Assembly: GCA_041747555.1 (NCBI GenBank)
Contig: JBGTEY010000013.1
Location: 80,814 to 144,813, forward strand
Source: Patescibacteria group bacterium
GTDB taxonomy: Bacteria > Patescibacteriota > Microgenomatia > UBA1400 > PJMF01
DNA: 64,000 nt
Reading direction: 5' to 3'
Shown: positions 18,177 to 55,334 of the stretch, one piece after another
Layout: each line of letters opens with the position of its first letter
Numbering within the stretch: the first letter of the stretch is position 1
Notes under the pieces: model-generated
The model's database searches: none
Seen by the model: only the letters and a program-made list of their open reading frames with translations
Told to the model about the DNA's origin: nothing
Program-made: the position numbers and the translations under genes

Positions 18177-19330
18177 AAATACTTCAAGTGTGCTCCTATC
18201 TCTATCCAGCGCTCGCATACGGAGGTCCCGCAAAGGCTGTGCATGATCTCTCCAAGGAACTTTCAAAAAACCATTCGGTAACTATCTATACAGGAGATTC
18301 TTGGGATGAGACACGGAGATTGCGTGCAGATGAAAAATTACAGTCCTCAAAAAATTTCGAGGTGCTGTATTTTAGAAACATTTTAAATTCAATCGCATAC
18401 CGCTTGCGATTGTTTACTTGTTTCGGAATGGTTTTCAATTATTTGCGAGACTACAAACAATATGATGTGGTGCATATTCATGATGTGTTTATTTTTCCAC
18501 AATTTCTGATAGCATTTTTTGCAAAATTTTTTTCTGTACCGTATGTAATTTCTCCCCACGGAATTCTTGATCCAACACGGATGCATAAAAAATCCACTAT
18601 TAAAAAAATCTTGTGGCCAATTGCGCAGAGCGCTTTACAGAACGCAACGGCAGTAGTTGCTGTCTCTAATCAGGAAGCAGACGATCTCAAGACACTTGGG
18701 TTTAAGAACGTTACTACTATATTTAATGGGGCTCCCATTCCACAAATTGATCCAGAGAAAAAAGTATCCAATCGATTCAATCTCACGAAAGATCCTAAAT
18801 ATTTGACACTGCTGTACATTGGAAAACTCCATCCGCAAAAAGGATTATTGGAACTGCTTCAGGCTGTGAATATGAGCCGTACGTCTATCAAAGTACTGGT
18901 GGCTGGGCCAGATGATGGAGCGCTGCGATCACTAAAAACCTACTGCAGCGATGTTGGTCTACAACATGTGCATTTTTTAGGTCTAGTTGATGATTTAGAG
19001 AAGCAGTATTTGTTTTCGATAGCTGATATTTTTATGTATCCATCGTACGCCGAGGGGTTTTCAATTAGTATTCTCGAAAGCATGAGTGCAGCCGTACCTG
19101 TTATTATTACAGAAGGGTGCAACTTCCCGCTGGTTGCAGAGCGGCAAGCTGGATTCATCGTAAAACTCAAGAATCTTGATAAAAATATTGCAGCTATTTT
19201 GAATTCAAAGAACATAAAGCGGGAAACACTCAAAAAATTCGGTAAAAACGCTCGCACACTAGTAATCGAACAATTTTCAATATCTACTGCTGCGCAAAAG
19301 CATGTAAGGCTATATGAAAAAATCGCATAG
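18173..19330 (+). CDS. Glycosyltransferase family 4
   Basis: 'MKILQVCSY...YGGP' and 'EGFSISILESMSAAVPVIITEG'. I chose the ATG at 18173 (ATGA overlap) instead of the track start 18152. Confidence 0.75.
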   Translation: MKILQVCSYLYPALAYGGPAKAVHDLSKELSKNHSVTIYTGDSWDETRRLRADEKLQSSKNFEVLYFRNILNSIAYRLRLFTCFGMVFNYLRDYKQYDVVHIHDVFIFPQFLIAFFAKFFSVPYVISPHGILDPTRMHKKSTIKKILWPIAQSALQNATAVVAVSNQEADDLKTLGFKNVTTIFNGAPIPQIDPEKKVSNRFNLTKDPKYLTLLYIGKLHPQKGLLELLQAVNMSRTSIKVLVAGPDDGALRSLKTYCSDVGLQHVHFLGLVDDLEKQYLFSIADIFMYPSYAEGFSISILESMSAAVPVIITEGCNFPLVAERQAGFIVKLKNLDKNIAAILNSKNIKRETLKKFGKNARTLVIEQFSISTAAQKHVRLYEKIA

Positions 19331-20273
19331 TATTAATTTCTACGGAATCAACTGCACCCTCACATCAGAAAATGAGCAGTTTGCTTCAATTTTTAATCAA
19401 AAATTTAGTGGATTTAAAGAGGGCGCCACCTATGCATTTGATACACAGTCTCTGGAGATTTTATTTCAGCATAGTCGAGCAGAATATCCGACTCCTACCA
19501 AAGTAAGTAGTCACACCTGGAGGGGTGACGGTATTCTAAAAATTCGGCATAATTATCTCTCATCCTCATGTGACGTGTACTTTTTTTACAATACTTCTCA
19601 CCAGCTCACAAAAATTCTGTTGTGCTACAGTGAATCCATAATCTTTAAACTGCTTAATGCTGCAATTGGTAGTAAGCTGCGAAGACAACTATTCCAAATC
19701 CTACTTAAACTTTATATTGAGCAATCCATTCTTTGGCAGCTCTGTTCGCAACATGATATGCGATGCTTGCACGCCGCTGCAATCGAAGAGAAGGGCGCAG
19801 TGCAAATCCTGGCTGGAATGAATGGAGTAGGAAAAAGTACTAAAGCATTGCAGTTAACACAAGTGAACAAATCGCGACTATATGCAGACAATTATCTACT
19901 AGTGAACAAAACACACGCCTATTTCTCTCCTGATTCAGTGAGACTTGATTCTAAAAGTATCAAACTGTTGCAATTGAATGCCGAAGGAGACTTTGGCTTT
20001 GGTAAAAAAACCGTTGCCATACCGTCCGAAGTTTTTTCTAAGATCCTGAGAGCACCGATTAAGCATATTTCTCGCATCACACTTGCAGAACATGAATCCA
20101 AGAAGAAATCTTCAAAGCAATCAGTGGTTCAAAAAATTTTAATAGATCAACTTATTCACCAAGAAGAAATCCTCGTTGCCCCTGTATCGCAAATTGGAGA
20201 GAAGTTTGATATAACTACTACGTTGTATCCAGATTGCGAGTATTTTGACTGGGAAATCGAACGAACTTCATGA
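19314..20273 (+). CDS. HPr-kinase C-terminal-domain-like P-loop kinase (HprK-related), function unknown
   Basis: 'LHAAAIEEKGAVQILAGMNGVGKSTKALQLTQ...RLYADNYLLV' aligns to the HprK Walker A region 'GVLITGDSGVGKSETALEL...LVADDRV'. Confidence 0.55.
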   Translation: MKKSHSINFYGINCTLTSENEQFASIFNQKFSGFKEGATYAFDTQSLEILFQHSRAEYPTPTKVSSHTWRGDGILKIRHNYLSSSCDVYFFYNTSHQLTKILLCYSESIIFKLLNAAIGSKLRRQLFQILLKLYIEQSILWQLCSQHDMRCLHAAAIEEKGAVQILAGMNGVGKSTKALQLTQVNKSRLYADNYLLVNKTHAYFSPDSVRLDSKSIKLLQLNAEGDFGFGKKTVAIPSEVFSKILRAPIKHISRITLAEHESKKKSSKQSVVQKILIDQLIHQEEILVAPVSQIGEKFDITTTLYPDCEYFDWEIERTS

Positions 20274-21337
20274 AAAAAATCTACAATGTTCCGTTTGCAC
20301 AAATTGCCCTTCATTCAGCCCCAGCTCGGGTAGAGAAGTTTTTCTCATCCTTACTATTCTCGCTCCCCAAACCTAGTGACATTCGTTTTTCTGTTGATCT
20401 TTTTTTTGAAAAAATCACTGACAATGCTTCCTCAGGCAAACTTGAGAAAAGGAGTGCCCGAGTAGGGAATGATTTCTACATTTTGGATACCAAACAAAAT
20501 CGAGCAAAAATTAACTTTCATGAGTTTTCTGATAAAAAAATCAAGCTATCTGTTGATCCAAATTTTGACCTCTACTATCTATACACATTTGTTGTCGAGC
20601 CACTTCTAGTAATTTGGTCCGCAAGTCACGATGTTGCTTACCTCCACGCTAGCGCAACTGAACAAAACGGTGAAGCAACAGTATTTTGTGCCTGGAGAAA
20701 CACAGGAAAAACCAACCAAATCCTCAAGCGATGTCAAGAGGGTCATAACTTTATGGGCGACGACTACTGCATAGTGTCTGAAAAAAATGTGTATCTCTAT
20801 CCCAAAACTATCAACGTTTTCTCATACAACCTGAAAGCATTTCCAGCAATTTTTTCTACACTACCAATGGCAACTGCACTGCGACTTAAAATAACTATGG
20901 CACTTAAATCTTCACTCCACTCACTTTCGCAGATTACCACTGGTGGTCTTGCAAAAATATTGTATCGGATTTCAGAGCTCGCCGAAATTTCTACAAATAT
21001 AAAGCTCACACCAAGCATGCTACACTCGAGCGTAACGTGCTCAGCTCAGTTAAAATCGATGTCCATTCTCCTCAAAACCGACAGTAGTGACAAGGAGTCC
21101 AGCGCACTATCTAAATCAGAAGCAGTCCAAAAGTTAAGAACAATTCAGTTGTATGAGCTCAAAGACTTTTTCGAAATTTTTGCTCAGTATCAATTTTTAT
21201 TTTCAAGCCATACTGAGTCAGTAGCTCAGATTATTAATTTTTCTAAGCAATACGCATCTGCTTTAAGTAAAAACGTATCTTCTGTAACTCTGTCACCAGT
21301 GTTTTCAAAAAAAATAATTGATCGGAACAATATATGA
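20270..21337 (+). CDS. HprK-C-like kinase paralog with a divergent Walker A
   Basis: Colinear with the previous ORF: 'LHASATEQNGEATVFCAWRNTGKTNQIL...FMGDDYCIV' against LHAAAIEEKG/GMNGVGKST/YADNYLLV. The P-loop first Gly is replaced (AWRNTGKT). Confidence 0.5.
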   Translation: MKKIYNVPFAQIALHSAPARVEKFFSSLLFSLPKPSDIRFSVDLFFEKITDNASSGKLEKRSARVGNDFYILDTKQNRAKINFHEFSDKKIKLSVDPNFDLYYLYTFVVEPLLVIWSASHDVAYLHASATEQNGEATVFCAWRNTGKTNQILKRCQEGHNFMGDDYCIVSEKNVYLYPKTINVFSYNLKAFPAIFSTLPMATALRLKITMALKSSLHSLSQITTGGLAKILYRISELAEISTNIKLTPSMLHSSVTCSAQLKSMSILLKTDSSDKESSALSKSEAVQKLRTIQLYELKDFFEIFAQYQFLFSSHTESVAQIINFSKQYASALSKNVSSVTLSPVFSKKIIDRNNI

Positions 21338-36972: not shown

Positions 36973-38511
36973 ATGAAAAAAACAGCAGCAATTTACGACC
37001 GATGGTTATCAACTTTAGGTGGAGGAGAGCAGGTAGCGTTTGCTTATGCCCAAACACTGCATGAGCTTGGCTACGCAGTCGAGCTACTGACACACAAGAA
37101 GCTTGATATCACTGCAGCAGAAAAGAAAATGGGCGTTTCTCTGGAAAATATAGGCGTCAGATATCTTCCTGAAGCAACCAGCCAACTATTGTCTGGAATT
37201 AGCGAAAAATATGATGTATTTATCAATACCTCACACTTGGATTATTTTCCAAATCGTTCAAAAAATGGCATCTTATCTGTATTTTTCCCGGGTCTTCTGC
37301 GTCTCAACCCGTACGAATATCTCAAGAGAGCACTTTTTATCCCTTCATTCAGAAAACTTTTTGTCTATCCATCACGCTATGAAGGATTTACGCACGATCA
37401 ATATCGTGATGGGAAAATATATAAATGGCTGTCTCATGAAGCTGGCATTGCTTTTAAAGACTCAATTTCACAATTACAAATCACCTTATTTTTTAAATCA
37501 ATGACGTTCGCTGTAATTGACCAAATTACGTTTCAGCTCGATGACGAATCAATCACTCCCAGCAATCGCACTGCAAATCACAACGACAACACTATTGAGT
37601 ATACTTTTACACTTAATGGCACAAAGAACAAAACGCTTAAAATAATTCTTCCTGACCACCCGTATTCTAACGAAATAGCATTGCTTAATTTGACGATCCC
37701 AAGTGTTCGCTACACACTCTACAACCTCTTTAAAAAATTGTTCCCCACGTATGAAATGCGATTGCATGGAGGGCCTGGAGTAACACAGCTATCAGACTTA
37801 AAATCTTATGACAGGATTGTAACTATTTCTGCGTTTTGCCAAAAATGGATCAAGAATTACTGGGCACTTCCCAGTAGTATTTTGTACCCACCAGTAAATA
37901 CCACAAATTTTAGTCCTGCCAAAAGTAAAAAGAATATTATTCTCCATGTTGGTAGGTTTTTTGTTTCAGGCCACAATAAAAAACAATTAGCCTTGGCAAA
38001 ATTATTTAAGCATATGGTACACAAGTATGGCATCACAGATTGGGAACTTCATTTTGTCGGAAGCATCGCCGATGGCGAAACGCATCACAGTTACTTTCAG
38101 CGTGTCCAGTCTGAAGCAAGAGATGTACCAATTTTTTTCCACACCGATACTCCTTTCACAGAGCTTCAGCATATTTTTTCGGAAGCTAAAATTTATTGGC
38201 ATGCGACGGGCCTGGACGAAGATGAAGAGAAAAACCCCGGTGCATTTGAACATTTCGGTATTACTACTGTCGAAGCAATGGCTTCTGGGTGTGTTCCCGT
38301 GGTTATCAGCGGGGGTGGACAAAAAGAAATAGTTACAGCAGGTTCTGGTTTTGTGTGTGAATCAAGAAAAGATTTGGTTGAACAAACATTGATACTCATG
38401 AAAGACGCTAACCTTTTAAAGTCCATGAGCAAGGAAGCTATTAAACGCAGCGATTACTTTAGTAGAGAACGATTCAAAGAACGGTTTAAAGCATTGATTT
38501 CTCAACCATGA
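36973..38511 (+). CDS. Glycosyltransferase family 4 with an N-terminal extension (paralog of 1654..2757)
   Basis: 'EHFGITTVEAMASGCVPVV' and 'KKNIILHVGRFF...IYWHATGLDED' are colinear with ORF 1654..2757. Confidence 0.75.
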   Translation: MKKTAAIYDRWLSTLGGGEQVAFAYAQTLHELGYAVELLTHKKLDITAAEKKMGVSLENIGVRYLPEATSQLLSGISEKYDVFINTSHLDYFPNRSKNGILSVFFPGLLRLNPYEYLKRALFIPSFRKLFVYPSRYEGFTHDQYRDGKIYKWLSHEAGIAFKDSISQLQITLFFKSMTFAVIDQITFQLDDESITPSNRTANHNDNTIEYTFTLNGTKNKTLKIILPDHPYSNEIALLNLTIPSVRYTLYNLFKKLFPTYEMRLHGGPGVTQLSDLKSYDRIVTISAFCQKWIKNYWALPSSILYPPVNTTNFSPAKSKKNIILHVGRFFVSGHNKKQLALAKLFKHMVHKYGITDWELHFVGSIADGETHHSYFQRVQSEARDVPIFFHTDTPFTELQHIFSEAKIYWHATGLDEDEEKNPGAFEHFGITTVEAMASGCVPVVISGGGQKEIVTAGSGFVCESRKDLVEQTLILMKDANLLKSMSKEAIKRSDYFSRERFKERFKALISQP

Positions 38512-40136
38512 CTCGAATACAGCTACTATTCTCAAAAATATGGCAACCACGCATTGTCTTCTTAGGAAGCATTTTCATATTCGTACTACTATTAGCAAAA
38601 AATCCACTCTCTGAACGAACGCTTATTCCCAACTTTGAACCATTTCCCGACACGTTTTATTATGTAACCACCGCGCGCTGCACTCTTGCGGGAAAGGGAT
38701 GGACTCTTTGTCGTCCAGAATCAGCGGATGCAGCTGGCATTTCAAGCAGTGTTGCGCCGCTGTATTCAGCTACGCTAATTCCAGGTTTTATACTTTTTAA
38801 TGATCCTCGATTTTTTTATGCTACCAATGTTTTAATCGCTCTAACTAGCCTTGGCATTTTTTATCTTTTGGCTAAGCGAGTCACAATGAATGCTATTTTT
38901 TTAGCGCTACTCCTTGGCCTATATGTCACAAACTTTTACCTCTACTGGTTCCCAACACTTGCAATGGCAGAAAATTTACTACTACTTCTAGCTCTTTCAG
39001 GAGTTTACTTCGCAACGAGCAGGCCCAGCAAAATAAATAGTGGTGCGCTGGCGGTGATTTCGGTTGGTATCGCGCTTACCAAATTCTCAGCCATTATTTA
39101 TGGTGCTGGATTTTTTGGATTGGGATTGATTCAGTATTTTTCAAACGTTGATAAGAAGAGTTTAAAAAAACATATCGTGTTCCTCGTGTTACTCATATCT
39201 ACACTGAGTAGCATTTTTTATACACGACTCATGGGGTTTGCCCTTGTTGCACTCGACCTATTCTCAAATCCTTCCCAGACAAGCTGGTTCTCCTCTTATT
39301 ACTTTCCCCAGAATAGCTTCTTTTATCTGTCAGCAGTCTTTGGGCAAGTCACAACTGTTTTGTGGCACTCATTGCCACTTGTTGATCCGTGGTTGGCAGT
39401 TGGCGCCCTGATTGGTGGTCTCTTGGGCTTTTCAAGAGCTAAAACGAAAACTATCGTTATCTTTAGTGTTTTGCCATTGATCTTTCATGTGCTGTTTATG
39501 TCCTTCTTTTATGTCGCAGATGCAAGATATATTATCTTTGCCATACCACTAGTACTTCTGCTATTTGGCATTTATCTGGAGAGAACTCATGAATTGTTTT
39601 TAAAAAAATCGGGTGAATGGGTTTTTTATGGAATCCTTGGCATAGTGACCGCACTAATACTGGTTTCTATTCTGCCACGAATCAAATCTCAGGTATCGCT
39701 CAACCTTCGATATGCTGAAACACCATGGTGGTACATTGCAGTTAAAGAGATGAATACTTTTTTTGAATTGCAGAAATCAGGTAACACGCATTCGCCAACA
39801 CCTACAGTGATTACACTGATTTCGCCGTACTTTATAGATTTTTATTCCAACCAAACATATTCAGTATTGCCCCTTGATACGCAGCAAGATTTTAGAGGGC
39901 ACAAACATGCTGTCTGGGGTAGTCATGTCAATGATGACCTGCACCAAGTCTACTCGAGCTATCTAGCTGAAGACGAAGACCTGTACATCAGCAACTACGG
40001 AACGGCAGGCTCAACAGCATTTCGAGAGTCGTTTGAGGAAATTGAGAAAGCATTTACACTCACGAAGGTCCAAGAAGGCTGTCACAATCTCTGCAACATC
40101 TACAAGGTATCTGAGAAATCGACGCAAGCTGAGTAG
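38508..40136 (+). CDS. GT-C fold membrane glycosyltransferase-like protein (PMT/ArnT-like, divergent)
   Basis: Multi-TM with the C-terminal motif 'VITLISPYFIDFYSNQTYSVLPLD', which is shared with the 1162-aa fusion protein and the 3659/5278 family. Confidence 0.55.
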   Translation: MTRIQLLFSKIWQPRIVFLGSIFIFVLLLAKNPLSERTLIPNFEPFPDTFYYVTTARCTLAGKGWTLCRPESADAAGISSSVAPLYSATLIPGFILFNDPRFFYATNVLIALTSLGIFYLLAKRVTMNAIFLALLLGLYVTNFYLYWFPTLAMAENLLLLLALSGVYFATSRPSKINSGALAVISVGIALTKFSAIIYGAGFFGLGLIQYFSNVDKKSLKKHIVFLVLLISTLSSIFYTRLMGFALVALDLFSNPSQTSWFSSYYFPQNSFFYLSAVFGQVTTVLWHSLPLVDPWLAVGALIGGLLGFSRAKTKTIVIFSVLPLIFHVLFMSFFYVADARYIIFAIPLVLLLFGIYLERTHELFLKKSGEWVFYGILGIVTALILVSILPRIKSQVSLNLRYAETPWWYIAVKEMNTFFELQKSGNTHSPTPTVITLISPYFIDFYSNQTYSVLPLDTQQDFRGHKHAVWGSHVNDDLHQVYSSYLAEDEDLYISNYGTAGSTAFRESFEEIEKAFTLTKVQEGCHNLCNIYKVSEKSTQAE

Positions 40137-40175: not shown

Positions 40176-43100
40176 ATGGCACTCATACGCACATTTCTCA
40201 CATGGTTGGATAAACACGCACTTTTTATAGTGAGTGTTTTTTTATTGGCATTCATCCCACTCTTTCCTAAAATTCCACTTTTTGACGCGCTCCCAGGTTA
40301 TATAGTACGTGTGAGAATTGAGGATATTTTAGTCTTTTTGACGATGCTGATATGGGTTCGCGAACTATGGCTTGGTCGAATTCAAATGCGGTCGCTCTAT
40401 ATTTGGGGAATTGTTTCGTATATCATCGTTGGATTCATCTCCCTCATTCTTGGAATCTTTTTACTTGAATCTATTCCACTTGAACTGCTGCATATAGGCA
40501 AAAGCGTACTACATTACTTTCGATACATCGAGTATTTTTTACTATTCATAATCGCGTACTCAGCAATTAGAACCCAGCATCAAATCAAAATTGTAATCAC
40601 TGTCTTGTGCATCACTGTCTTTGGAATTGCCCTCTACGGCTATGGTCAACAACACTGGCAACTACCTCTCTATTCAACGATGAACAGAGAATACAGCAAA
40701 GGTGTCGCCCTCTATTTACAGGAATTTGCCCGACCACAATCTACGTTTGCTGGGCCATATGACCTTGGTGCATTTTTGGCTTTTGTGTTGCCATTTTTAT
40801 TTTCATTGCTGATAGTACAACTGCAAGATAAGAAGACACGATTCAAGTACCTAACTGGTTTATTAGCGCTCGCTCAAGCTAGTGGGCTCTGGATGCTCAT
40901 TGCGAGTGGTGCCAAAACAGCACTGGCTGCATACTGCGCTGGAATCGCAGTTGTTGTACTTCTAAAGCTATCGAGTCAAAAATCATACCTAAAACAAACG
41001 CTTTGGGGTGGAGGAGCACTACTTGGTCTTTTGCTCTTAGTGGTTATTATTATCCAGTTTTCTGGTACAACGACCCGTGATTATCTACGCACCCTTTCGG
41101 CTCAAAACCGAGTCACCCACACCGCATATTCACTAGTAGCATTTGAAAGTATAGAATCTGCAATCCCATCTTTAGGGGATCGTCCAAGCGATCTCTATGG
41201 TGCAGGGCATGAAATTAAGCGTGTAGCAACTGAATCTGCAGATGGTGTTGCGGGGTATATTGATGTGCCAACCAAAAGCATTTGGTCTGACAATGCGCTG
41301 AAATACGGCATATCCATGGGAATTCGACTTGATACGTTGTGGCCAAATGCTATCAAGGGCTTTTTCGCTAATCCACTAACAGGAAAAGGTTACGGAACGC
41401 TTGCCAAAACCGAGTCACAACAATTTACAGAGGCAGACAGTACAGACAATAACTACCTTAGGGTGCTGGGGGAGACTGGATTACTTGGATTTATTGCTTT
41501 TTTTGGGTCTATTTTTATTTTGCTTCGCCAACTCTTTCATACCAAAGCGTCTACAAATGCACTCCAGTCTGCCTTGTCAATTGGTCTGGCTGCTGGAGTA
41601 TCTGCAATGCTCATCAATGCACTGTACATTGACGTCTTTGCTGCCTCCAAAGTAGCCTTTACCTTTTGGGGACTTGCGGGATTTGTAGTCGCCACGAATC
41701 AATTGCTGCAATCCAGTAATTTACAGTCAAAAAAGCCATCTGAGTCACTCAAGCACAATGACAATTTCCTACATTCAACATTTGAAAAAAATATATTTGG
41801 CAGTATCAAAGATCACATCACCCGCCACAGCAGCGTTTACCTTGCCCTTTTAATCCTTTTTTTCATGATGCACCAAAATCCTTTTGCAGATAATACTCTT
41901 CTTAAAAATATTGGTGATACGCCCAGCGCAGTCGAAGAAGTAGTTGCTGCTCGCTGTTATTTAGCTGGACTGGACATGACTATCTGCAACACGCAAACGG
42001 GAATATTATTAAAATCTCATCATTCTATCTACAGTTATCTTTTGGTTCCATTTTTATCTGTCGCCAAAGTGCCCACTGCATTTTATTTTGCTAACGCAAC
42101 AATTCTTGTTATTTCACTCCTAATTACCTACGGGTTGGTGCAAGTAAGTCTCGTGAAATGGCCAAAAAATCGCACACTACGAATGCTCATTGGTTTGGGA
42201 ACAACACTTTTGCTAATCAGATTCTTATCAAATTCGGAACAACCATTCACCACTACCGAAACTATTATTTTCTTGCTCGGTATCCCAATTGTTGCCATAG
42301 CAATGAGCATAAGCACAAGCGTACTCACATCTAAAACAAGTACTGCCGTTCGAAATGGCTTTTTGGTGTTTGCAACTCTGTCCTTACTAGCGAGTGCTCC
42401 ATTAAGTTCACTGTCAACTCGCTTTAGAAATGATCAAATCCCGCACAAGTATAAGGCAATTGAAAGAATTAACCTCAGCTTTGATGAAAATTTTGTAGTT
42501 CAAAACCAGTCTAAGCCATATGTTATTACGACACTCAATCCGTATTACATAGATTTATATAATACTGGGGGCACATATCTACCGCTACCACTCACCCGTT
42601 TTCAGAGTTATTTTGATCATGCCAGTGCCGCATGGGGTGACAGTGATTACAATGACCTCATGGGAACTTACTCAGATGTTTTAGAAACTGAACACCGTCT
42701 CTTCATTTCTGACTATGGACTGGACAGTGATCCAGCCAATCAAGCAGCATTCGATCAAATTGCAAACGATTATTCTCTTCGATTTCATGCTATCGACTGC
42801 GATGAGCGCTGCAATCTATACAGTATCACCCCTAAAACTGCCCAGATTTCTCCACAGCCCCAATCAATCAATCCCTACATACTTAATCTCAATCAACTGA
42901 GCTCAAATGAAAATGGATATGAATTTCGTATTTTTAGCAACCGATATAATTCAGATCTGCCCTCTATAAAGCATAACACTAGAACATACGCACAGCGCGT
43001 AGCTGAAGCTTCATCCCAACCTTCACAATTTAGTATTGTAACCGGTGATACTGGCGTTAGGGGTGATGGGGGACAGTGGGAGTATTTCCTACAACTTACC

Positions 43101-43664
43101 GAAGCAACGCATAACTACCCACTACTATATAGTCCAGGAAATTTTGATGTTATTCCCAGAAAATATGCGAGTACAACAACTCAGATTTTTTATACAGAAA
43201 GAGATTTTTTCATTCTTGCACCAGTTAAAAATAACTCAACTATTGATCCAGTCGACCAGCTGGATATTTACAATGCGCTACTAAGTATTGAAAGCATGCC
43301 AGAAATTAAAAATGTGTTCTTAATTGCCCATGATCTTGATTGGCAAAGTAATTCTTCGGACCAGAACTTTTTACCAAGGTTAGAAAATAGAATTAATCGA
43401 CTTACAGACAAAAAAGTCTACATTTTTACTAGCGACCACACGCCACAAACTGCCAAGCCTAATCAACAATACGAGCAGTTAATCAAGAATGCTCCTGTCC
43501 ACATCGAGTATAATGCCAGTCTTATTTCTGGTACTCAAAATGACATATATCTTGAAATCAAGGTTGACCAAACTGGCGCAGTGCTCATCTCTCCACAGTC
43601 GCTACCACTTCTCAGTGAGCAAATTGAGCTCCTCAACTCCACTGTCCAGGACACGTCAGAATGA
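40176..43664 (+). CDS. Giant fusion membrane protein: N-terminal O-antigen ligase/polymerase-like domain (Wzy_C-type), central GT-C-like multi-TM module, and a C-terminal soluble domain with degenerate metallophosphoesterase-like motifs
   Basis: The N-terminal roughly 510 aa are paralogous to ORF 53652..55334. The middle segment (...VITTLNPYYIDLYNTGGTYLPLP...) is paralogous to ORF 38508. The C-terminal part has 'FSIVTGDTGVRGDGG', 'YSPGNFD' and 'YIFTSDHTP'. Full details are in the finding at the same coordinates. Confidence 0.6.
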   Translation: MALIRTFLTWLDKHALFIVSVFLLAFIPLFPKIPLFDALPGYIVRVRIEDILVFLTMLIWVRELWLGRIQMRSLYIWGIVSYIIVGFISLILGIFLLESIPLELLHIGKSVLHYFRYIEYFLLFIIAYSAIRTQHQIKIVITVLCITVFGIALYGYGQQHWQLPLYSTMNREYSKGVALYLQEFARPQSTFAGPYDLGAFLAFVLPFLFSLLIVQLQDKKTRFKYLTGLLALAQASGLWMLIASGAKTALAAYCAGIAVVVLLKLSSQKSYLKQTLWGGGALLGLLLLVVIIIQFSGTTTRDYLRTLSAQNRVTHTAYSLVAFESIESAIPSLGDRPSDLYGAGHEIKRVATESADGVAGYIDVPTKSIWSDNALKYGISMGIRLDTLWPNAIKGFFANPLTGKGYGTLAKTESQQFTEADSTDNNYLRVLGETGLLGFIAFFGSIFILLRQLFHTKASTNALQSALSIGLAAGVSAMLINALYIDVFAASKVAFTFWGLAGFVVATNQLLQSSNLQSKKPSESLKHNDNFLHSTFEKNIFGSIKDHITRHSSVYLALLILFFMMHQNPFADNTLLKNIGDTPSAVEEVVAARCYLAGLDMTICNTQTGILLKSHHSIYSYLLVPFLSVAKVPTAFYFANATILVISLLITYGLVQVSLVKWPKNRTLRMLIGLGTTLLLIRFLSNSEQPFTTTETIIFLLGIPIVAIAMSISTSVLTSKTSTAVRNGFLVFATLSLLASAPLSSLSTRFRNDQIPHKYKAIERINLSFDENFVVQNQSKPYVITTLNPYYIDLYNTGGTYLPLPLTRFQSYFDHASAAWGDSDYNDLMGTYSDVLETEHRLFISDYGLDSDPANQAAFDQIANDYSLRFHAIDCDERCNLYSITPKTAQISPQPQSINPYILNLNQLSSNENGYEFRIFSNRYNSDLPSIKHNTRTYAQRVAEASSQPSQFSIVTGDTGVRGDGGQWEYFLQLTEATHNYPLLYSPGNFDVIPRKYASTTTQIFYTERDFFILAPVKNNSTIDPVDQLDIYNALLSIESMPEIKNVFLIAHDLDWQSNSSDQNFLPRLENRINRLTDKKVYIFTSDHTPQTAKPNQQYEQLIKNAPVHIEYNASLISGTQNDIYLEIKVDQTGAVLISPQSLPLLSEQIELLNSTVQDTSE

Positions 43665-44956
43665 AGGAAGCTCTCAGCACAATCTCCAAGCATACCACTC
43701 AGTCTACATCTGGTCTCACACAATCCATTATTAGCGTCGCTGGAAATGGCGCATCAATGACTGTTTCAGCTGTTGCAATGCTTCTACTATCTCGCTCACT
43801 GGGGCCAATTGATTTTGGAGTGTTTAGTGTTGGATTCGCCCTCGTGCTTATTCTCAATAAAATAAATGACTTAGGACTCACACTTGCGCAACTTAAATTC
43901 ATTCCACGGATGTCCTCGGCTCAAGATCAAAATGAAGTTTTTTCATATGTAATCAAGCTCAAACTATCAGTCACTGTGGCAATTGCCATACTCGGTACGC
44001 TGTTCACACCTACACTGAGCGGACTCCTTGATTTTCCTCACACCAACATACTGTACCTTGCCTTCTGGCTTAATGGACTTACCGTTCTATTTGAACAATT
44101 GATGGTGATGCTGCAGGCACTCCATCGATTCACCGCAGCTGCAATCTCAGGTGTCATTCAAGCGAGTGGAAAATTTATTACAGCAATTTTAGTTGTATTA
44201 TTTTTTCCTAAAAATATTCTACTAGCATTTATTACCTATGTTTCTGCACCAATTTTGCCCGTTTTATTCTTAAAGTACTTACTCCCAAAGACGGTTATCT
44301 TGACTCGAAATTCTAAAAAAACTACAGATCATAAAAAAATCATTTCTATGGCAGGTCATTCTGCGGTTGGTTTTATGGCGTTGGGTATCATTGAGAATAT
44401 CGATATTTTATTTGTTCAGCGTTACCTTAATGATTTTGAGACGGGACTATTGGGGGGAGCAGGGAAAATTGCGATGTTATTCTCACTCTCTGCGTTTGCT
44501 CTTTCTACGGTACTGAACGCGAGGGCGGCTCGATATCATAAAAAATCCGACCTCAGAAACTTTATCCGAAAAGGCATACTTCTCGCGTTAGCGACTTCTA
44601 TTGGCTATGCCATACTGGCACCGCTGTCTGGATTACTGATCACACTGTCTATCGGACCAGAATATGCTGCCGCACAAACTTTGTTGAAAATTTTATTAGG
44701 TGCTTCTTTTCTGACTATCATCACAACACCGTTCACGGCAATTTTCTTTTCATTCAAGGGGGCAGAGTGGTACTTTTCGGCTGGAGGCGTACTACAGTTG
44801 CTATTAATAGTCATTGGAAATGCAGTGCTTGTTCCACAATTTGGATTATTAGCATCTGCATGGACCCGAGTAGCAACAAAGGCACTGTACTTGCTCTTCA
44901 CCCTAGTGGTGGCTACGTATTACGTTCGTTCCATACATTCTGAAAAAACTGAGTAG
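43661..44956 (+). CDS. Wzx-like flippase (MOP superfamily polysaccharide biosynthesis protein)
   Basis: 431 aa, about 12 TM helices, ATGA overlap with the upstream gene. Confidence 0.6.
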   Translation: MKEALSTISKHTTQSTSGLTQSIISVAGNGASMTVSAVAMLLLSRSLGPIDFGVFSVGFALVLILNKINDLGLTLAQLKFIPRMSSAQDQNEVFSYVIKLKLSVTVAIAILGTLFTPTLSGLLDFPHTNILYLAFWLNGLTVLFEQLMVMLQALHRFTAAAISGVIQASGKFITAILVVLFFPKNILLAFITYVSAPILPVLFLKYLLPKTVILTRNSKKTTDHKKIISMAGHSAVGFMALGIIENIDILFVQRYLNDFETGLLGGAGKIAMLFSLSAFALSTVLNARAARYHKKSDLRNFIRKGILLALATSIGYAILAPLSGLLITLSIGPEYAAAQTLLKILLGASFLTIITTPFTAIFFSFKGAEWYFSAGGVLQLLLIVIGNAVLVPQFGLLASAWTRVATKALYLLFTLVVATYYVRSIHSEKTE

Positions 44957-48660: not shown

Positions 48661-49831
48661 ATCAATCCACATCGCTATTGATTGCAATGAAGCAAATATT
48701 AAAAACAGGGTTGGGAGTAATGTCTATGCCTACAACATACTTATGGCACTGCAAGGGCTAGCAAAAACAAACAAGATCACGTGCACACTTTTTCATGCTG
48801 AAAAACTTGTTGATGATATGCCTAAGCAAGCAGCGAACTGGCGATATCAACACATCGGTCCACGCAAATTTTGGACTCAGTGGGCACTTCCCAGGCAGCT
48901 TTTTTCTGAAAAAGATACATTCGATGCATTTTTTACACCAGGGCACTATGCGCCGCGATTCTGCCCAATACCCAGTGTCGTTTCTGTCATGGACACAGCG
49001 TATCTAGTATATCCAGAACAATTTCGCCGCAGAGATTATTTGCAACTAAAGATGTGGACACAGTACAGCGTACAGCAAGCAGCAAAAGTCATTGCAATTA
49101 GCGATTTTACCAAATCAGAAGTGTGCAAATATTACAAAAAGGAAGAAAAAGATGTTGTCGTCGCCTCACCGGCCGCACCAGAGAAGATAGCACTGCCAAA
49201 CCAACAAAAACAACTGTCCATGCTCAAAGCTCTTCGTGTTTCAAAACCATACTTCTTATTCGTTGGTACAGTACAGCCAAGAAAAAATATTGAACAACTC
49301 ATAACCGCATTTGAAATTTTTGTGACTGATGTGCTCCAAAGTTCATCAGTCACTCCTCAATTCAGTGAGTATCAGCTTGTGATAGCCGGAAAAATTGGTT
49401 GGATGGCTGACCCGATAGTACAGCGGGCAAAAGAGTCACCGGTTACTGATCAAATACTGCTCACCAATTATGTGATGGATGACGAAAAAGCCGTGCTGTA
49501 CTCCAACGCCACTGCTACAATACTACCCGGTCTCTACGAAGGATTTGGCATCCCACCTCTCGAGGCTATGCAGTATGGAAGCATCCCAATTGTATCGAAT
49601 TCTTCGAGTTTGCCAGAGGTAGTTGGAGACGCTGGATTTAAAATAGATCCAACTTCTTCAGAAGAACTTGCCGCTGCACTTCAGAGCGTTGCAAAGCTTA
49701 CAGATTCAGAGCGAAAAAAAATGCTTGTCGAGGGTCAGAAGCAGGCTCAGAAATTTTCATGGAAAGAGAGTGCGAAAACTATACTTTCAACAATTCAAAA
49801 CGTCGCCTCAGATAAAAACAATGTCAAATAA
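48653..49831 (+). CDS. Glycosyltransferase family 4
   Basis: 'EGFGIPPLEAMQYGSIPIVSN'. Confidence 0.8.
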   Translation: MAKSIHIAIDCNEANIKNRVGSNVYAYNILMALQGLAKTNKITCTLFHAEKLVDDMPKQAANWRYQHIGPRKFWTQWALPRQLFSEKDTFDAFFTPGHYAPRFCPIPSVVSVMDTAYLVYPEQFRRRDYLQLKMWTQYSVQQAAKVIAISDFTKSEVCKYYKKEEKDVVVASPAAPEKIALPNQQKQLSMLKALRVSKPYFLFVGTVQPRKNIEQLITAFEIFVTDVLQSSSVTPQFSEYQLVIAGKIGWMADPIVQRAKESPVTDQILLTNYVMDDEKAVLYSNATATILPGLYEGFGIPPLEAMQYGSIPIVSNSSSLPEVVGDAGFKIDPTSSEELAAALQSVAKLTDSERKKMLVEGQKQAQKFSWKESAKTILSTIQNVASDKNNVK

Positions 49832-50324
49832 CATGAGCGGAATTGTCATCGGAATAGACCCAGGATTTGACCGCCTCGGGTGGGCTGTCGGAACGATTGA
49901 AAACCGGTCGGTGAAAGTTCTCGACTTTGGTTGTATTACGCCCAAGTCATCGCCTGACTACTTCAAAAGACTTTCAGACTTACAATCTGAATTCTCAAAA
50001 GTGTTAGAAAAGTACAACCCTGTTACTGCCGCCATTGAAACACTTTTTTTCTCAAAAAATAAAACTTCAGCGCTGGCAGTCAGTGAATCAAGGGGAATCG
50101 TGATCGGTCGTCTTGTAGCCACTCAATGCTCGATCCATGAATACAACCCCAATACCATTAAAGCTACCGTGACAGGTTCTGGCACTGCCTCTAAGGCGGA
50201 AGTAACCAAAATGGTAGTCCTGCAAACAGGCATATCGGCAACTGGCCATCATGATGACGCCATCGATGCTGTTGCAATACTGCTGACACATGCCATACTC
50301 AGTGGCACTCGTCATCTTGCCTGA
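49821..50324 (+). CDS. ruvC: Crossover junction endodeoxyribonuclease RuvC
   Basis: 'GIVIGIDPGFDRLGWAV' is the RuvC catalytic Asp motif. The track ORF starts at a TTG at 49668 inside the upstream GT4; the ATG at 49821 (or 49833) is the plausible start. My manual count of the printed sequence near the stop is off by 1 nt from the track; I use the track end. Confidence 0.85.
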   Translation: MSNNMSGIVIGIDPGFDRLGWAVGTIENRSVKVLDFGCITPKSSPDYFKRLSDLQSEFSKVLEKYNPVTAAIETLFFSKNKTSALAVSESRGIVIGRLVATQCSIHEYNPNTIKATVTGSGTASKAEVTKMVVLQTGISATGHHDDAIDAVAILLTHAILSGTRHLA

Positions 50325-50390
50325 TGTTTTTTCTCGTCACTCACCCAAGTGCAAATTCCCGCAAGAAAGACGAACATTGTATAAAAATTT

Positions 50391-50399
50391 GATATACTC
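50391..50399 (+). promoter_or_regulatory. Extended -10 promoter element (TGATATACT) in the ruvC-ruvA gap, about 9 nt upstream of the ruvA ATG
   Basis: It matches the extended -10 consensus TGnTATAAT at 8 of 9 positions. The hexamer lies 9 nt from the start codon, implying a leaderless or near-leaderless transcript. Confidence 0.35.
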
Positions 50400-50408
50400 A
50401 ATAGACGT

Positions 50409-50996
50409 ATGATTGCAAAATTAACCGGCATTCCCGAACTCTTTGGTGATCACATCATTCTTACTGTTTCTGGCGTTGGATATGAAGTTCATGCGACCGC
50501 AGACGCACTCGCACTCATCAATTCTCAATCAAGTGCTGAACGTACAAACGAAATTACGCTTTACACATTTTTGTGGGTACGTGAAGACGCCCTAGAGCTC
50601 TACGGTTTTGCTTCACCAGAAGAAATTAAAATATTCAAGTATTTACTCCAGGTTTCTGGGGTTGGCCCAAAAACCGCCTTGGCAATTACTAATCAAGGAG
50701 TAAAACCCATTGTCGAAGCCGTGCAATCAGGTAACGTATCATTCTTCAAATCAGTCCCTCGCGTTGGCAAACGATCGGCTCAGAAAATTATAATAGAACT
50801 CACTCCAAAGCTCGGCGCGCTAGAAGAACTAGATTTGACTCCGCTCAGCGATATTCACCGAGATGTGTTCGAAGCGCTTGTCTCACTTGGGTATGATGAG
50901 CAAGCTGTTAGCAAAGTTGTTCGATCGCTGGATGTTGAAACTTTAGAACTCAAGTCAGCCATCCAAAGAGCAATTAAGGAATTAAGCACTCAATGA
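50409..50996 (+). CDS. ruvA: Holliday junction branch migration complex subunit RuvA
   Basis: 'MIAKLTGI...VSGVGYEV' is the typical RuvA OB-fold N-terminus, and 'GVGPKTALAI' is a HhH motif. Confidence 0.85.
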   Translation: MIAKLTGIPELFGDHIILTVSGVGYEVHATADALALINSQSSAERTNEITLYTFLWVREDALELYGFASPEEIKIFKYLLQVSGVGPKTALAITNQGVKPIVEAVQSGNVSFFKSVPRVGKRSAQKIIIELTPKLGALEELDLTPLSDIHRDVFEALVSLGYDEQAVSKVVRSLDVETLELKSAIQRAIKELSTQ

Positions 50997-52000
50997 CAGA
51001 CACTACATTAGAAGTATTACATTTACCGAGCAGTCCTGAAGATGATCATCTGATAGTTTCGTTGCGTGCTCAAAATTGGGATGAATTTTTTGGGCAAGAG
51101 CACGTTAAGGAGTCACTAAGCATCGCCATCACCGCTGCTAAAGGCAGGAATGAGCCGCTCGATCATACGCTATTTTATGGCCCACCGGGTTTGGGGAAAA
51201 CTACCCTAGCACACATCATCGCTCGCGAGCTGGGCTCACAATTAACCGTTACTTCTGGTACCGCACTCTCAAAAGCTGGAGATTTAGCAGCAATTCTGAC
51301 CAATCTCAAGCCAGGAGACGTTCTATTTGTTGATGAAATTCACCGATTGCCAAAGGTTGTAGAAGAAACGCTCTATCCAGCTATGGAAGATTTTGCGCTC
51401 GATATCGTGATCGGAAAAGGACCTGCAGCGCGCACGATTCGACTTGATCTCCCGCAATTTACCTTAATTGGTGCAACGACACGCTTTGGATTGCTTGCAG
51501 GGCCATTTCGAGACAGATTTGGATTGATTCAGCGGCTTAGGTATTACGAATTCCAACAACTCGCAAGAGTTTTGCACAAAGCTGCCAAAAAATTAGGCAT
51601 TGAGCTCACCGATGAAGGCGCAGAAGCAATTGCCAAACGATCCAGAGGAACACCTAGAATTGCCCTCAAACTCCTCAAGCGAGTCCGCGATTACGTTGAA
51701 GTCGACGGTGGGACTGAAATTACACCAAAAATGGTAGATCATGCGCTTGATCTATTCGCAATTGATATTCTCGGACTTGGAGAGGCAGATAGAAGACTAT
51801 TGATCCAGCTTATCGACAAACACGAAGGTGGTCCGATTGGGCTTTCAACGATTAGCGCCACTCTCAATGAAGATGCACAAACAATTGAGGAGGTACTTGA
51901 GCCCTATCTTATCCAACTTGGGTTCATGAAGAGAACCCCGCAAGGCCGAGTTATTACCAAAAAAGCATACGACCACCTCAAAAAACCATACACAAAGTAA
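50993..52000 (+). CDS. ruvB: Holliday junction branch migration ATPase RuvB
   Basis: 'FYGPPGLGKTTLAHIIA' (Walker A), 'VLFVDEIHRL' (Walker B) and 'GATTR'. Confidence 0.95.
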   Translation: MTDTTLEVLHLPSSPEDDHLIVSLRAQNWDEFFGQEHVKESLSIAITAAKGRNEPLDHTLFYGPPGLGKTTLAHIIARELGSQLTVTSGTALSKAGDLAAILTNLKPGDVLFVDEIHRLPKVVEETLYPAMEDFALDIVIGKGPAARTIRLDLPQFTLIGATTRFGLLAGPFRDRFGLIQRLRYYEFQQLARVLHKAAKKLGIELTDEGAEAIAKRSRGTPRIALKLLKRVRDYVEVDGGTEITPKMVDHALDLFAIDILGLGEADRRLLIQLIDKHEGGPIGLSTISATLNEDAQTIEEVLEPYLIQLGFMKRTPQGRVITKKAYDHLKKPYTK

Positions 52001-52677: not shown

Positions 52678-53655
52678 ATGAGTTCTCAAACAACCCTACT
52701 ATCGATAATTATTGTGAGTTACAACACAGCTCGCCTGACTCTGCAAACTATTAAATCTACACTTAAAGACATTGAAAGCACAGAAGATTTGCGCACAACG
52801 AGTGAAATAATTGTGGTCGATAATAACTCAAGCGACAACACGCTTGAGCGTATTACTAGCCTCAAAAAAACAACTCAGACACTCATTACAATTATAAAAA
52901 ACAAAAAAAACCTTGGATTCGCAACTGCAAATAACCAAGGTATCGAAGTAGCAAAAGGACGCTGCATCTTACTCCTCAACTCGGATACCATCGTGCAACG
53001 AGGCTCTCTCAAAAAACTTGTAGATGCACTCCATCCAACACCTGCCATCGAGAACCTCGGCATAATTGCTGCCCGACTTGAAAACCAGGATGGTAGCTAT
53101 CAAGCTCAAGGGGGATCCCTCCCCACGCTCTTCAGACTGGCAACTCAAATGTTTGGTATTGATGATATTCCAGTGATCGGAACCCTACTTCCATCAATGC
53201 AAGAGACTGGACTCAATTATTCACAACCAACCAAACAAGATGACCTGCTTTCTGAGTTGTACGAAATTGGCTGGGTCGCAGGAACAGCTATGATGATCCA
53301 TCGATCTGTAATTGACAGCATCGGCGACCTCGACGAAGGAATTTTCATGTATGCAGAAGACATAGAGTATTGCGTCAGAGCGCAAGATCACCACATTGCC
53401 TGCGCTATTCACTCAGGCGCTTCAGTTACACATTTAAAAAATGCGAGTGGCTCACAAGAAGCAGCCATTCTCGGTGAATTTAGAGGACTCTTATATCTAT
53501 GGGCAAAACATCGTCCCTTATGGGAATATCGCGCTGCTCGACTCATTCTGATAATCGGAGCATGTATTAGAATTGTCTTGTTTGGTACAATTATGGGCGA
53601 CAAGACTAGAGCAAATGCATACAAAAAAGCGCTCTCAGAAATACGCAGCACATGA
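52678..53655 (+). CDS. Glycosyltransferase family 2
   Basis: 'LSIIIVSYNTARLT', 'IIVVDNNSSDNT', 'GFATANNQG' and 'LLLNSDT'. Confidence 0.75.
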   Translation: MSSQTTLLSIIIVSYNTARLTLQTIKSTLKDIESTEDLRTTSEIIVVDNNSSDNTLERITSLKKTTQTLITIIKNKKNLGFATANNQGIEVAKGRCILLLNSDTIVQRGSLKKLVDALHPTPAIENLGIIAARLENQDGSYQAQGGSLPTLFRLATQMFGIDDIPVIGTLLPSMQETGLNYSQPTKQDDLLSELYEIGWVAGTAMMIHRSVIDSIGDLDEGIFMYAEDIEYCVRAQDHHIACAIHSGASVTHLKNASGSQEAAILGEFRGLLYLWAKHRPLWEYRAARLILIIGACIRIVLFGTIMGDKTRANAYKKALSEIRST

Positions 53656-55334
53656 AGAAGACTCATTCTCCGTTGACAAAAATGATAACTTGGTTTGATC
53701 GGTATGGTTTACTGACACTCGCAAGTTTTCTGGTCGTATTTTTACCACTATATCCCAAATTGCCACTTTTTGATGTCATCCCGGGATATATCGTACGCGT
53801 AAGAGTCGAAGATATCCTGATACTTTTTGTGAGCGCCATTTGGGCAATGCAAGTGTATAGAAAGAAGATTGTCTGGAAAAACCCGCTTAACCCGCTGATT
53901 GGCCTGTACGCACTTGCTGGAATCGCTTCTATTTTTTCCGCCATAGTTATTTTGGGAACAATTCCACTCGAGACTATTCATCTTGCAAAATCAACGCTAC
54001 ATTTCCTTAGATATATCGAGTACTTCATGCTCTTTTTTATATTTTTCTCTAGTATCCAGAAGAAAAAGGACGTGCTTGTCATTCTTACAGTTCTGGTGGC
54101 AACTGTCATGATGATTGCGGTGTATGGCATTGGGCAAAAATATTTTTATTGGCCTGTGTACTCAACCATGAATCGAGAATTTAGCAAGGGTGTACGACTT
54201 ATCTTGACCGAGCATGCTCGTGTTCAATCAACATTTGGTGGACACTATGATTTGGCAGCATACCTTGTAATAACTTTGCCACTGCTGCTGAGCATTGGAG
54301 TAGCTGCAAAAAAACAAAGTATAAAAGTGATGATATGGCTCGCGTTTACTCTAGGTGTGTGGCTCCTCGTAGTCAGTGGCGCCAGAATGTCATTTGCTTC
54401 TTATATCATTGCTGTGAGTGTTACCATTGCGCTCCTTGCGTTCAAAAAAAAGAACTGGCGCGAGCGTATACGGTGGGGAGTATCACGAATTGCGCTGGTT
54501 GGATTTCTAACCTTCATTATTTTCTTAAGTTTTGGCGAAGATATGTATGAGCGATTTTTACAAACACTCGAAGCATATCCCGAATTACACGAACCTTACC
54601 ATCAAGCTAACGATCAAAGAAAAGAACTAGTGCAAGCATACATCCTAACGCCACTTGGTCTTCAAAACATGAAAATTACCAAGCCTGATAATGCAATCAC
54701 AACTGATGAAGCTGCCGTTATGGTTTCATCTGATCAGCAACCCACCCCACTCGAATCTGACACCAGACGTCCGAGTGATGTCTATGTTGAAGTCCCGAAT
54801 ATTCAACAAGTTGAAACAACCTCTGAAACGGGCGAGACTACCATCACCTACATTGAAACTGAACGAGTCTATTCTGAAAATGCACTTCGTCACGGGCTCT
54901 CACTTGCGATTCGTCTCGATACGCTGTGGCCTCAGGCAATTGCAGGATTTGAACGTAATCCACTCTTGGGAACTGGCTATGCGACACTTAATAAACAAAG
55001 TCCTACGCACTTTACAGAGGCCGATAGCACAGATAATAATTTCTTAAGGACACTTGGAGAAACTGGCTTGCTTGGTTTTGTCACATTTTATGGAATAATC
55101 TTATTTGCAATGCATCAAGCATATTCTCTTGCTCGCTTACACAGCAGTGATTCCATCGAGACCGCCGTCGCAATTGGTTTTTTTGGTGCGAGCTTTGGCC
55201 TATTATTGAATGCGCTCTATATAGATGTTTTTGCGGCATCAAAAGTTGCACTTGCCTACTGGAGTCTTGCGGGTGTGGTTATTGCACTGGCGAGACTAAG
55301 TTCTCAAAAAAAAGTAGCAAAGCAATCAAAATGA
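53652..55334 (+). CDS. O-antigen ligase/polymerase-like membrane protein (Wzy_C/WaaL family-like)
   Basis: About 12 TM helices and a large periplasmic loop with 'RLDTLWPQAIAGFERNPLLGTGYATL...FTEADSTDNNFLRTLGETGLLGF'. It is paralogous to the N-terminal domain of ORF 40176. Confidence 0.6.
   Translation: MKKTHSPLTKMITWFDRYGLLTLASFLVVFLPLYPKLPLFDVIPGYIVRVRVEDILILFVSAIWAMQVYRKKIVWKNPLNPLIGLYALAGIASIFSAIVILGTIPLETIHLAKSTLHFLRYIEYFMLFFIFFSSIQKKKDVLVILTVLVATVMMIAVYGIGQKYFYWPVYSTMNREFSKGVRLILTEHARVQSTFGGHYDLAAYLVITLPLLLSIGVAAKKQSIKVMIWLAFTLGVWLLVVSGARMSFASYIIAVSVTIALLAFKKKNWRERIRWGVSRIALVGFLTFIIFLSFGEDMYERFLQTLEAYPELHEPYHQANDQRKELVQAYILTPLGLQNMKITKPDNAITTDEAAVMVSSDQQPTPLESDTRRPSDVYVEVPNIQQVETTSETGETTITYIETERVYSENALRHGLSLAIRLDTLWPQAIAGFERNPLLGTGYATLNKQSPTHFTEADSTDNNFLRTLGETGLLGFVTFYGIILFAMHQAYSLARLHSSDSIETAVAIGFFGASFGLLLNALYIDVFAASKVALAYWSLAGVVIALARLSSQKKVAKQSK

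Follow-up and report, generated by a model that had tools for sequence, protein, structure and literature searches.

We analyzed a 64,000-nucleotide stretch of contig JBGTEY010000013.1 from a Patescibacteria group bacterium (GenBank assembly GCA_041747555.1), referred to here as the window. It contains an open reading frame (ORF) at 40176..43664 on the forward strand encoding a 1162-amino acid (aa) fusion protein. The fusion joins a Wzy_C domain of the O-antigen ligase/polymerase type, a truncated module resembling class C glycosyltransferases (GT-C), and a domain with a metallophosphoesterase fold. Both the single ORF and the three-module composition had been proposed in a preliminary description of this DNA and are confirmed here (Table 1). 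The fusion is genuine and forms a conserved family rather than a rarity. We give an even chance to the reading in which Wzy_C alone is catalytic, with the two accessory modules serving as enzyme-derived binding, docking or spacing devices.

To place the fusion among its relatives, 5.8 billion proteins were searched, returning at least 120 clusters on which all counts out of 120 are based. At least 120 homologs are full length (961–1271 aa, covering 82–100% of the query at 30–56% identity), and the closest among the matches listed is 56% identical across 99% of the length. The three modules are found in the same order in 120 out of 120, with an N-terminal domain of about 360–540 aa, a middle module of 283–421 aa, and a tail of 117–351 aa after the CxxxC motif of the middle module. 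The clusters were drawn from NCBI, JGI, ENA, and Logan assemblies. The preliminary description had allowed that a sequencing or assembly frameshift might have joined separate genes into one long ORF. Because at least 120 independent full-length homologs from four assembly sources retain the three modules in identical order, such an artefact is ruled out, and we assign it next to no probability. Homologs with named sources come from Patescibacteria-type genomes (Microgenomates, Woesebacteria, Pacebacteria), with a few evidently mislabelled as 'Pseudomonadales'.

Related genomes encode the fusion as well as stand-alone Wzy_C and ORF 38508-like proteins. Scanning a single genome for each species gave 563 relatives, including fused copies (query residues about 1–1130) and stand-alone copies (about 1–520). 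Eight species-representative genomes encode a fused protein together with a stand-alone Wzy_C copy. In one of them the two genes (L047 and L074) share a contig at a distance of about 13 kb, as in the window. As a separate observation, many third-party assemblies titled 'uncultured Pseudomonadales bacterium' (L004, L005, L009, L012, L015, and others) contain the Patescibacteria-specific fusion with the syntenic genes around it. This series of assemblies seems to carry a wrong organism label.

The N-terminal domain is the part of the fusion with a recognizable family. Wzy_C (PF04932) is the sole Pfam match on the whole protein, spanning residues 237–443 with 34.0 bits against a gathering score of 31.7, and most of the 120 homologs have it as a precomputed match. 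Over the last 640 residues Pfam gave no match up to E 10, and NCBIfam had none for the fusion, its parts, or its two paralogs in the window (ORF 38508 and ORF 53652). Of the hidden Markov models named in the preliminary description, Wzy_C is therefore matched and Metallophos (PF00149) is not matched in the query. Residues 8–523 are 41% identical to the stand-alone ORF 53652 (BLASTP, E 2e-126). This bears out the paralogy noticed earlier, and the blocks then quoted, PLFDALPGYIVRVRIEDIL, YSTMNREYSKGV, and FTEADSTDNNYLRVLGETGLLGF, all lie within the alignment. When a profile of the full-length fusion was compared with the PDB, WaaL structures were not reached and weak phosphoesterase matches (E 0.1–0.7) were returned.

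The same domain is the most constrained of the three. An alignment of 44 sequences has 56 invariant columns, all but 5 inside residues 155–502, and these include R171, E172, K175, R384, D386, D424, R429, E433, D486, and K492. Mean column entropy is 1.78 over residues 1–520 versus 2.5–2.7 for the other modules. Hydropathy analysis gave about 10–12 hydrophobic segments and a 142-residue loop at 294–435, with the invariant R384, D386, D424, R429, and E433 in or just past this loop. O-antigen ligases and related polymerases are of the GT-C_B class, use lipid-PP-oligosaccharide donors (PP, diphosphate), and display their conserved residues on a long outer loop toward the C-terminal end (PMC10920833). 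Like these families (WaaL, PglL-type, some Wzy; PF04932; CAZy GT121 and relatives), residues 1–520 of the fusion exceed the profile threshold and are polytopic, with a long loop near the C-terminus, probably outside the cell, in which Arg, Asp, and Glu residues are invariant. Also as in Wzy_C systems, the fusion is encoded in a Wzx-containing glycan locus. Unlike the usual Wzy polymerases, its N-terminal domain is far more conserved in sequence, and unlike the described Wzy_C members it carries a GT-C_A-like membrane remnant and a metallophosphoesterase-fold domain. The N-terminal domain is the constrained part of the fusion and presumably its catalyst. One residue of the query stands out: codon 194 (window 40755-40757), in the FAGHYDL block, encodes Pro in place of a near-invariant His. 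Position 194 is His in 110 and Pro in 10 of the 120 sequences (the query included), with no third residue. As the His/Pro alternative recurs across several clades, we dismissed H194P as an inactivating change.

The middle module is related to ORF 38508, encoded upstream of the fusion. Residues 557–656 align with residues 21–123 of ORF 38508 (E 2e-9), and residues 744–890 with its residues 394–540 (32% identity, E 2e-20). Comparing the profile of the fused module with that of the ORF 38508 family by hhalign gave a probability of 100% (E 2.4e-52), the alignment passing over about 200 residues in the centre of the stand-alone proteins. The relationship given in the preliminary description thus stands, with the module covering about residues 540–895 instead of 540–790. 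In the AlphaFold model of the module (predicted local distance difference test, pLDDT, 90.2; predicted template modeling score, pTM, 0.86), one membrane helix is separated from four others by a 50-residue loop that contains a helix and a hairpin, and a small alpha/beta domain follows.

Conservation differs between the two families. The stand-alone family, for which we found 61 relatives, comprises membrane proteins of about 540 aa with 34 invariant columns, including R37, N42, D48, Y52, R69, D99, R101, E155, K192, and R340. The fused family varies at the positions aligned with R37, D48, Y52, D99, and R101. The stand-alone proteins have invariant D48 and D99 and a near-invariant E44 in the first outside loop, whereas residues 566–640 of the fused family have no invariant Asp or Glu, the best being E587 (72/120) and E572 (64/120). 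The only invariant residues of the fused module are P569, C594, C604, C875, and C879. The last two (both 120/120) correspond to a CxxxC motif that is also invariant in the stand-alone family (C525, C529).

Profile and structure searches placed neither family among characterized enzymes. A precomputed PMT_2 match in one of the 61 ORF 38508 relatives is the sole Pfam match of that family; a Pfam scan of 30 of the relatives gave nothing relevant, and a scan of the fused middle module alone, made for the query only, gave no match. By hhalign the ORF 38508 family had no significant similarity to the two PMT_2 proteins of the window, and its profile had one chance-level match in the PDB. Foldseek found no PDB match to the middle module at E ≤ 0.001, the weak top matches being Rossmann-type methyltransferases. 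The ORF 38508 proteins of Patescibacteria are probably GT-C-type transferases of a family not yet described.

GT-C enzymes have 8–14 membrane helices (PMC10920833). The fused module may be like the GT-C_A enzymes (PMT/GT39, ArnT/GT83, ALG12, DPY19, STT3/PglB) in fold only; unlike them it has five helices and lacks a conserved acidic residue in the first loop. With about 200 residues lost, five helices left, and the stand-alone invariants variable, the module is probably GT-C-derived and non-catalytic, apparently a leftover of the ORF 38508 family and not an enzyme. It could instead be a working minimal GT-C, the fusion then performing two transfers, one of a side-chain or priming sugar from polyprenyl phosphate and one en bloc. 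Its homology to a family whose invariant polar residues suggest activity would fit, as would the good conservation of P569, Y619, and N640. We nevertheless think a working GT-C very unlikely, as the missing part of the paralog's membrane core includes W147, P149, E155, K192, and R340, only five membrane helices are left, the first outside loop has no invariant acidic residue, and one proline and four cysteines are all that is invariant. The loss of the central residues and of the invariant loop residues also speaks against the coupling to a second glycosyl transfer considered in the preliminary description.

The likely topology places both accessory modules outside the cell. The linker at residues 521–551 is rich in Lys, Arg, and His, and the short loops 660–668 and 715–727 are rich in Lys and Arg. 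By the positive-inside rule the linker would be cytoplasmic. With five helices following, the first loop of the middle module (C594, C604), the alpha/beta domain with the CxxxC motif, and the phosphoesterase-fold domain would then all be outside. The four invariant cysteines (C594, C604, C875, C879) fit an extracytoplasmic location. About 10 homologs have an extra C-terminal hydrophobic segment and basic tail past the last domain, an anchor feature shared with stand-alone relatives of the phosphoesterase-like domain.

The C-terminal domain has a phosphoesterase-like fold, as the preliminary description had supposed. The predicted structure is a confident, intact four-layer alpha/beta sandwich of the metallophosphoesterase type. 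The domain covers about 240 aa (905–1140) and not the last 370 or so, residues 757–890 belonging to the middle module. All four motif strings quoted earlier are present (TGDTG 956–960, GDGG 963–966, SPGNFD 986–991, and FTSDHTP 1084–1090); their numbering had to be changed. TGD is motif II, and S921-N-R-Y924, following the first strand, is motif I. GDGG was rejected as motif II since positions 963–966 are not conserved. The query domain has no Metallophos match even at E 10, while 16 out of 34 homologous domains match at E ≤ 0.1, the best at E 4.8e-8. Three tested homologous domains exceed the gathering score of this profile (28.5–31.1 bits), and these above-threshold matches start at profile position 15–20, past motif I. 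Against the PDB, a profile of the domain reached GpdQ at E 0.09, spanning motifs II–III only.

We also looked for relatives of this domain outside the fusion, by searching 1.84 billion representatives exhaustively with a profile at E ≤ 0.001. It returned 692 proteins, many of them stand-alone proteins of about 290–420 aa matched over the whole domain. The ones inspected begin with a signal peptide or an N-terminal anchor and are also anchored in the membrane at the C-terminus. Two stand-alone relatives have named sources, a Planctomycetota genome and an archaeon. Among the 99 used for signature counts, the site reads G-H-x-Y-G (His 98/99, Tyr 90/99), G-D (99/99), G-N-H-[DE] (His 95/99), a motif IV His (98/99), and G-D-x-G (Asp 85/99). 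These GHxYG proteins look like real enzymes. On two unrelated contigs, one from Planctomycetota, the GHxYG gene lies in the same small cluster (L081, 5282-9783 and 4599-5282; L082, 5216-10923). The order is a gene for an 883–930 aa protein, the GHxYG phosphoesterase gene (about 350 aa), and a VTC-domain gene, with a DUF4956 membrane protein encoded nearby. The 883–930 aa protein has CotH/beta-helix Pfam matches in L081 and none in L082, and the DUF4956 gene is downstream in L082 and upstream of the CotH gene in L081. The context hints at a role connected with polyphosphate or phosphorylation. The stand-alone relatives thus occur in CotH-phosphoesterase-VTC-DUF4956 clusters, while the fused domains occur in glycan loci.

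The site that the stand-alone proteins conserve is eroded in the fused ones. The seven signature positions are N922, Y924, D958, N989, F990, H1052, and D1087 in the query. All seven signature residues are present in 76 of the 99 stand-alone proteins and at least six in 93, whereas no fused protein has more than five and 29 out of 120 have two or fewer. His at position 922 is found in 32/120 fused versus 98/99 stand-alone proteins, and His at position 990 in 8/120 versus 95/99. The degeneracy noted in the preliminary description is borne out. The fused clades differ in what they have lost: the query clade has SNR[FY] and GN[YF]D; a long clade has SHRF, GNYD, and GDL; and a third has GHTY without motifs III and IV. 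Such clade-specific losses are the pattern expected of relaxed catalytic constraint with the fold kept for a non-catalytic reason. Unlike canonical metallophosphoesterases (DxH, GD, GNH[DE], H, GHxH), the fused domain fails the motif set. Unlike enzymes of the GpdQ/Rv0805/Lmo2642 type and the stand-alone GHxYG subfamily, the fused domains mostly lack the His residues of motifs I and III and never have the full signature. From these comparisons the phosphoesterase-like part of the fusion has probably lost its chemistry. The automated database names of the homologs include 'O-antigen ligase family protein' and 'metallophosphoesterase', and the latter is probably misleading about activity. Like GAP50 of Plasmodium, Vps29, and the B-subunits of polymerases alpha, delta, and epsilon, the fused domain would be a retained non-catalytic metallophosphoesterase-fold scaffold. 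Unlike those soluble or single-pass eukaryotic scaffolds, it is part of a bacterial polytopic glycan transferase, and it has no specific sequence relationship to them.

Several points weigh against two non-catalytic modules. Of the seven signature residues the query retains five (Y924, D958, N989, H1052, D1087), and few polar positions of the C-terminal domain are better conserved than D958 and N989, so that a one-metal or phosphate-binding site with weak or altered catalysis could survive there. The motif positions come from strand ends of the model and from the alignment rather than from superposition on a solved structure, and support for assigning the middle module to GT-C is only moderate. 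The phosphoesterase-like domain might accordingly still be an enzyme with a remodelled, probably one-metal site (D958, N989, H1052, D1087), N922 and R923 replacing the second metal, and would then act on a phosphate that the transferase reaction liberates or carries. Candidate reactions are dephosphorylation of polyprenyl diphosphate and the cutting or forming of phosphodiesters in a teichoic acid-like polymer. This would be consistent with the intact fold, the retained residues (D958 in 103/120 and N989 in 89/120), and stand-alone relatives with a fully conserved site. The domain would also face the side of the membrane on which the active loop of Wzy_C lies and polyprenyl diphosphate is set free. 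On the other hand, the motif III His is missing in 112/120 and the motif I His in 88/120, the clade-dependent losses argue against a single conserved alternative site, the query domain has no Metallophos match, and its rate of evolution matches that of the other accessory module. Together with the low signature counts, this makes a surviving enzyme unlikely in our judgement. The coupling to a phosphate-processing step suggested in the preliminary description is likewise not borne out: the fused domain never has the full signature, and the stand-alone relatives conserve its residues at 86–100%.

In the reading with Wzy_C as the sole catalyst, the neighbouring GT2 and GT4 enzymes would build a polyprenyl-diphosphate-linked glycan, which the probably co-translated Wzx would flip to the outer face. 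The N-terminal Wzy_C domain, in the membrane and acting at its outer face, would then transfer it en bloc, either onto the following repeat unit or onto a final acceptor. To our knowledge Patescibacteria have no outer membrane and no lipid A, so the acceptor cannot be lipid A core. After the linker the chain would re-enter the membrane as a five-helix GT-C remnant, a shortened paralog of the gene directly upstream, and continue into two extracytoplasmic domains. The last of these probably derives from secreted, membrane-anchored enzymes with a GHxYG/GD/GNHD/H/GDxG site. The accessory modules may hold the acceptor or growing polymer, or pair with the full-length GT-C-like paralog as in pseudoenzyme-enzyme pairs. 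Pairing of the remnant with its paralog is an attractive conjecture. A bolder possibility is a 'Rosetta stone' assembly line, in which the decayed GT-C copy couples Wzy_C to the active upstream paralog and the phosphoesterase-fold domain keeps a one-metal, phosphate-binding or weakly catalytic site that handles the polyprenyl-diphosphate leaving group or a teichoic acid-like phosphodiester. This would be an undescribed coupling of glycan transfer to carrier-lipid or phosphate processing, and we consider it rather improbable.

Patescibacteria, the candidate phyla radiation, are abundant and mostly uncultured bacteria with small genomes and almost unknown envelopes. The literature on this architecture and on O-antigen ligases in candidate phyla yielded nothing relevant, in agreement with the earlier view that the architecture is undescribed. 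What is new is a putative lipid-linked-glycan transferase with two apparent pseudoenzyme modules, which some of the Patescibacteria encode as a core gene. Two enzymes would have been turned into non-catalytic modules of a third, the likely parents being the upstream paralog and the GHxYG phosphoesterase family. The N-domain invariants, the four invariant cysteines, and D958/N989 offer handles on the wall glycans of these bacteria.

Table 1. Modules and motifs of the fusion protein and the surrounding genes (window coordinates).
Feature	Residues	Position	Strand	Remarks
Fusion ORF	1–1162	40176..43664	+	1162 codons, ATG start, no internal stops
Wzy_C domain	1–520	40176..41735	+	O-antigen ligase/polymerase type, GT-C_B class, polytopic
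K/R/H-rich linker	521–551	41736..41828	+	From sequence, hydropathy, and the amphipathic helix starting the middle-module model
Truncated GT-C-like module, membrane part	552–756	41829..42443	+	Five membrane helices; C594/C604 in first outside loop
GT-C-like module, small alpha/beta soluble domain	757–890	42444..42845	+	Invariant C875-x3-C879
Metallophosphoesterase-fold domain	905–1140	42888..43595	+	Site eroded
Motif I	S921-N922-R923-Y924			After first strand of fold; D..H in 0/120 sequences
Motif II	G957-D958			Asp 103/120
Motif III	G988-N989-F990-D991			Asn 89/120, His 8/120
Motif IV	H1052			His 63/120
Motif V	S1086-D1087-H1088			
GT2		35429		
GT4		36973		
ORF 38508, stand-alone full-length paralog of middle module		38508..40136	+	542 aa; unnamed GT-C-like family
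Wzx-type flippase		43661..44956	+	Pfam Polysacc_synt E 8e-18
Epimerase		between Wzx and PMT_2	opposite	
PMT_2-type GT-C		45929		
Two GT4 genes, then ruvC, ruvA, ruvB		ruv genes within 49668-52000		
ORF 53652, stand-alone Wzy_C paralog		53652..55334	+	560 aa; Pfam, BLASTP

The window is one long glycan-synthesis region (Table 1). The start ATG of the Wzx gene overlaps the stop TGA of the fusion (ATGA), which suggests that the two are co-translated in one operon. The gene order GT2, GT4, ORF 38508-like gene, fusion, epimerase, PMT_2, GT4, GT4, ruvCAB is kept around homologs of 37%, 34%, and 31% identity. An ORF 38508-like gene lies within 10 kb of the fusion in 12 out of about 30 fused loci examined. 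It is upstream in 11 of these (L001, L002, L007, L008, L012, L013, L018, L019, L022, L029, and L047), often directly adjacent. Protein and locus are thus kept across lineages of about 30% identity, beside the housekeeping ruvCAB genes. This breadth of conservation and the ruvCAB adjacency suggest a core envelope function and not a variable surface-antigen island. The ruvC, ruvA, and ruvB genes directly follow the two GT4 genes inside the glycosyltransferase region, and they are similarly placed in L001 (17196-19366) and L002 (18880-19738).

Elsewhere in the window, the HprK-like kinases mentioned in the preliminary description were not identified, the ORFs presumably meant (19314 and 20270) having no Pfam match at E ≤ 0.01. 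They belong to a set of five ORFs of 319–584 aa without a match at this threshold (5278-6948, 6945-8699, 12219-13445, 19314-20273, and 20270-21337), of which the first two have the size of GT-C enzymes. A single 505-aa ORF at 31793-33310 joins a polysaccharide deacetylase (residues 44–179) to a GT2 domain (residues 217–394).

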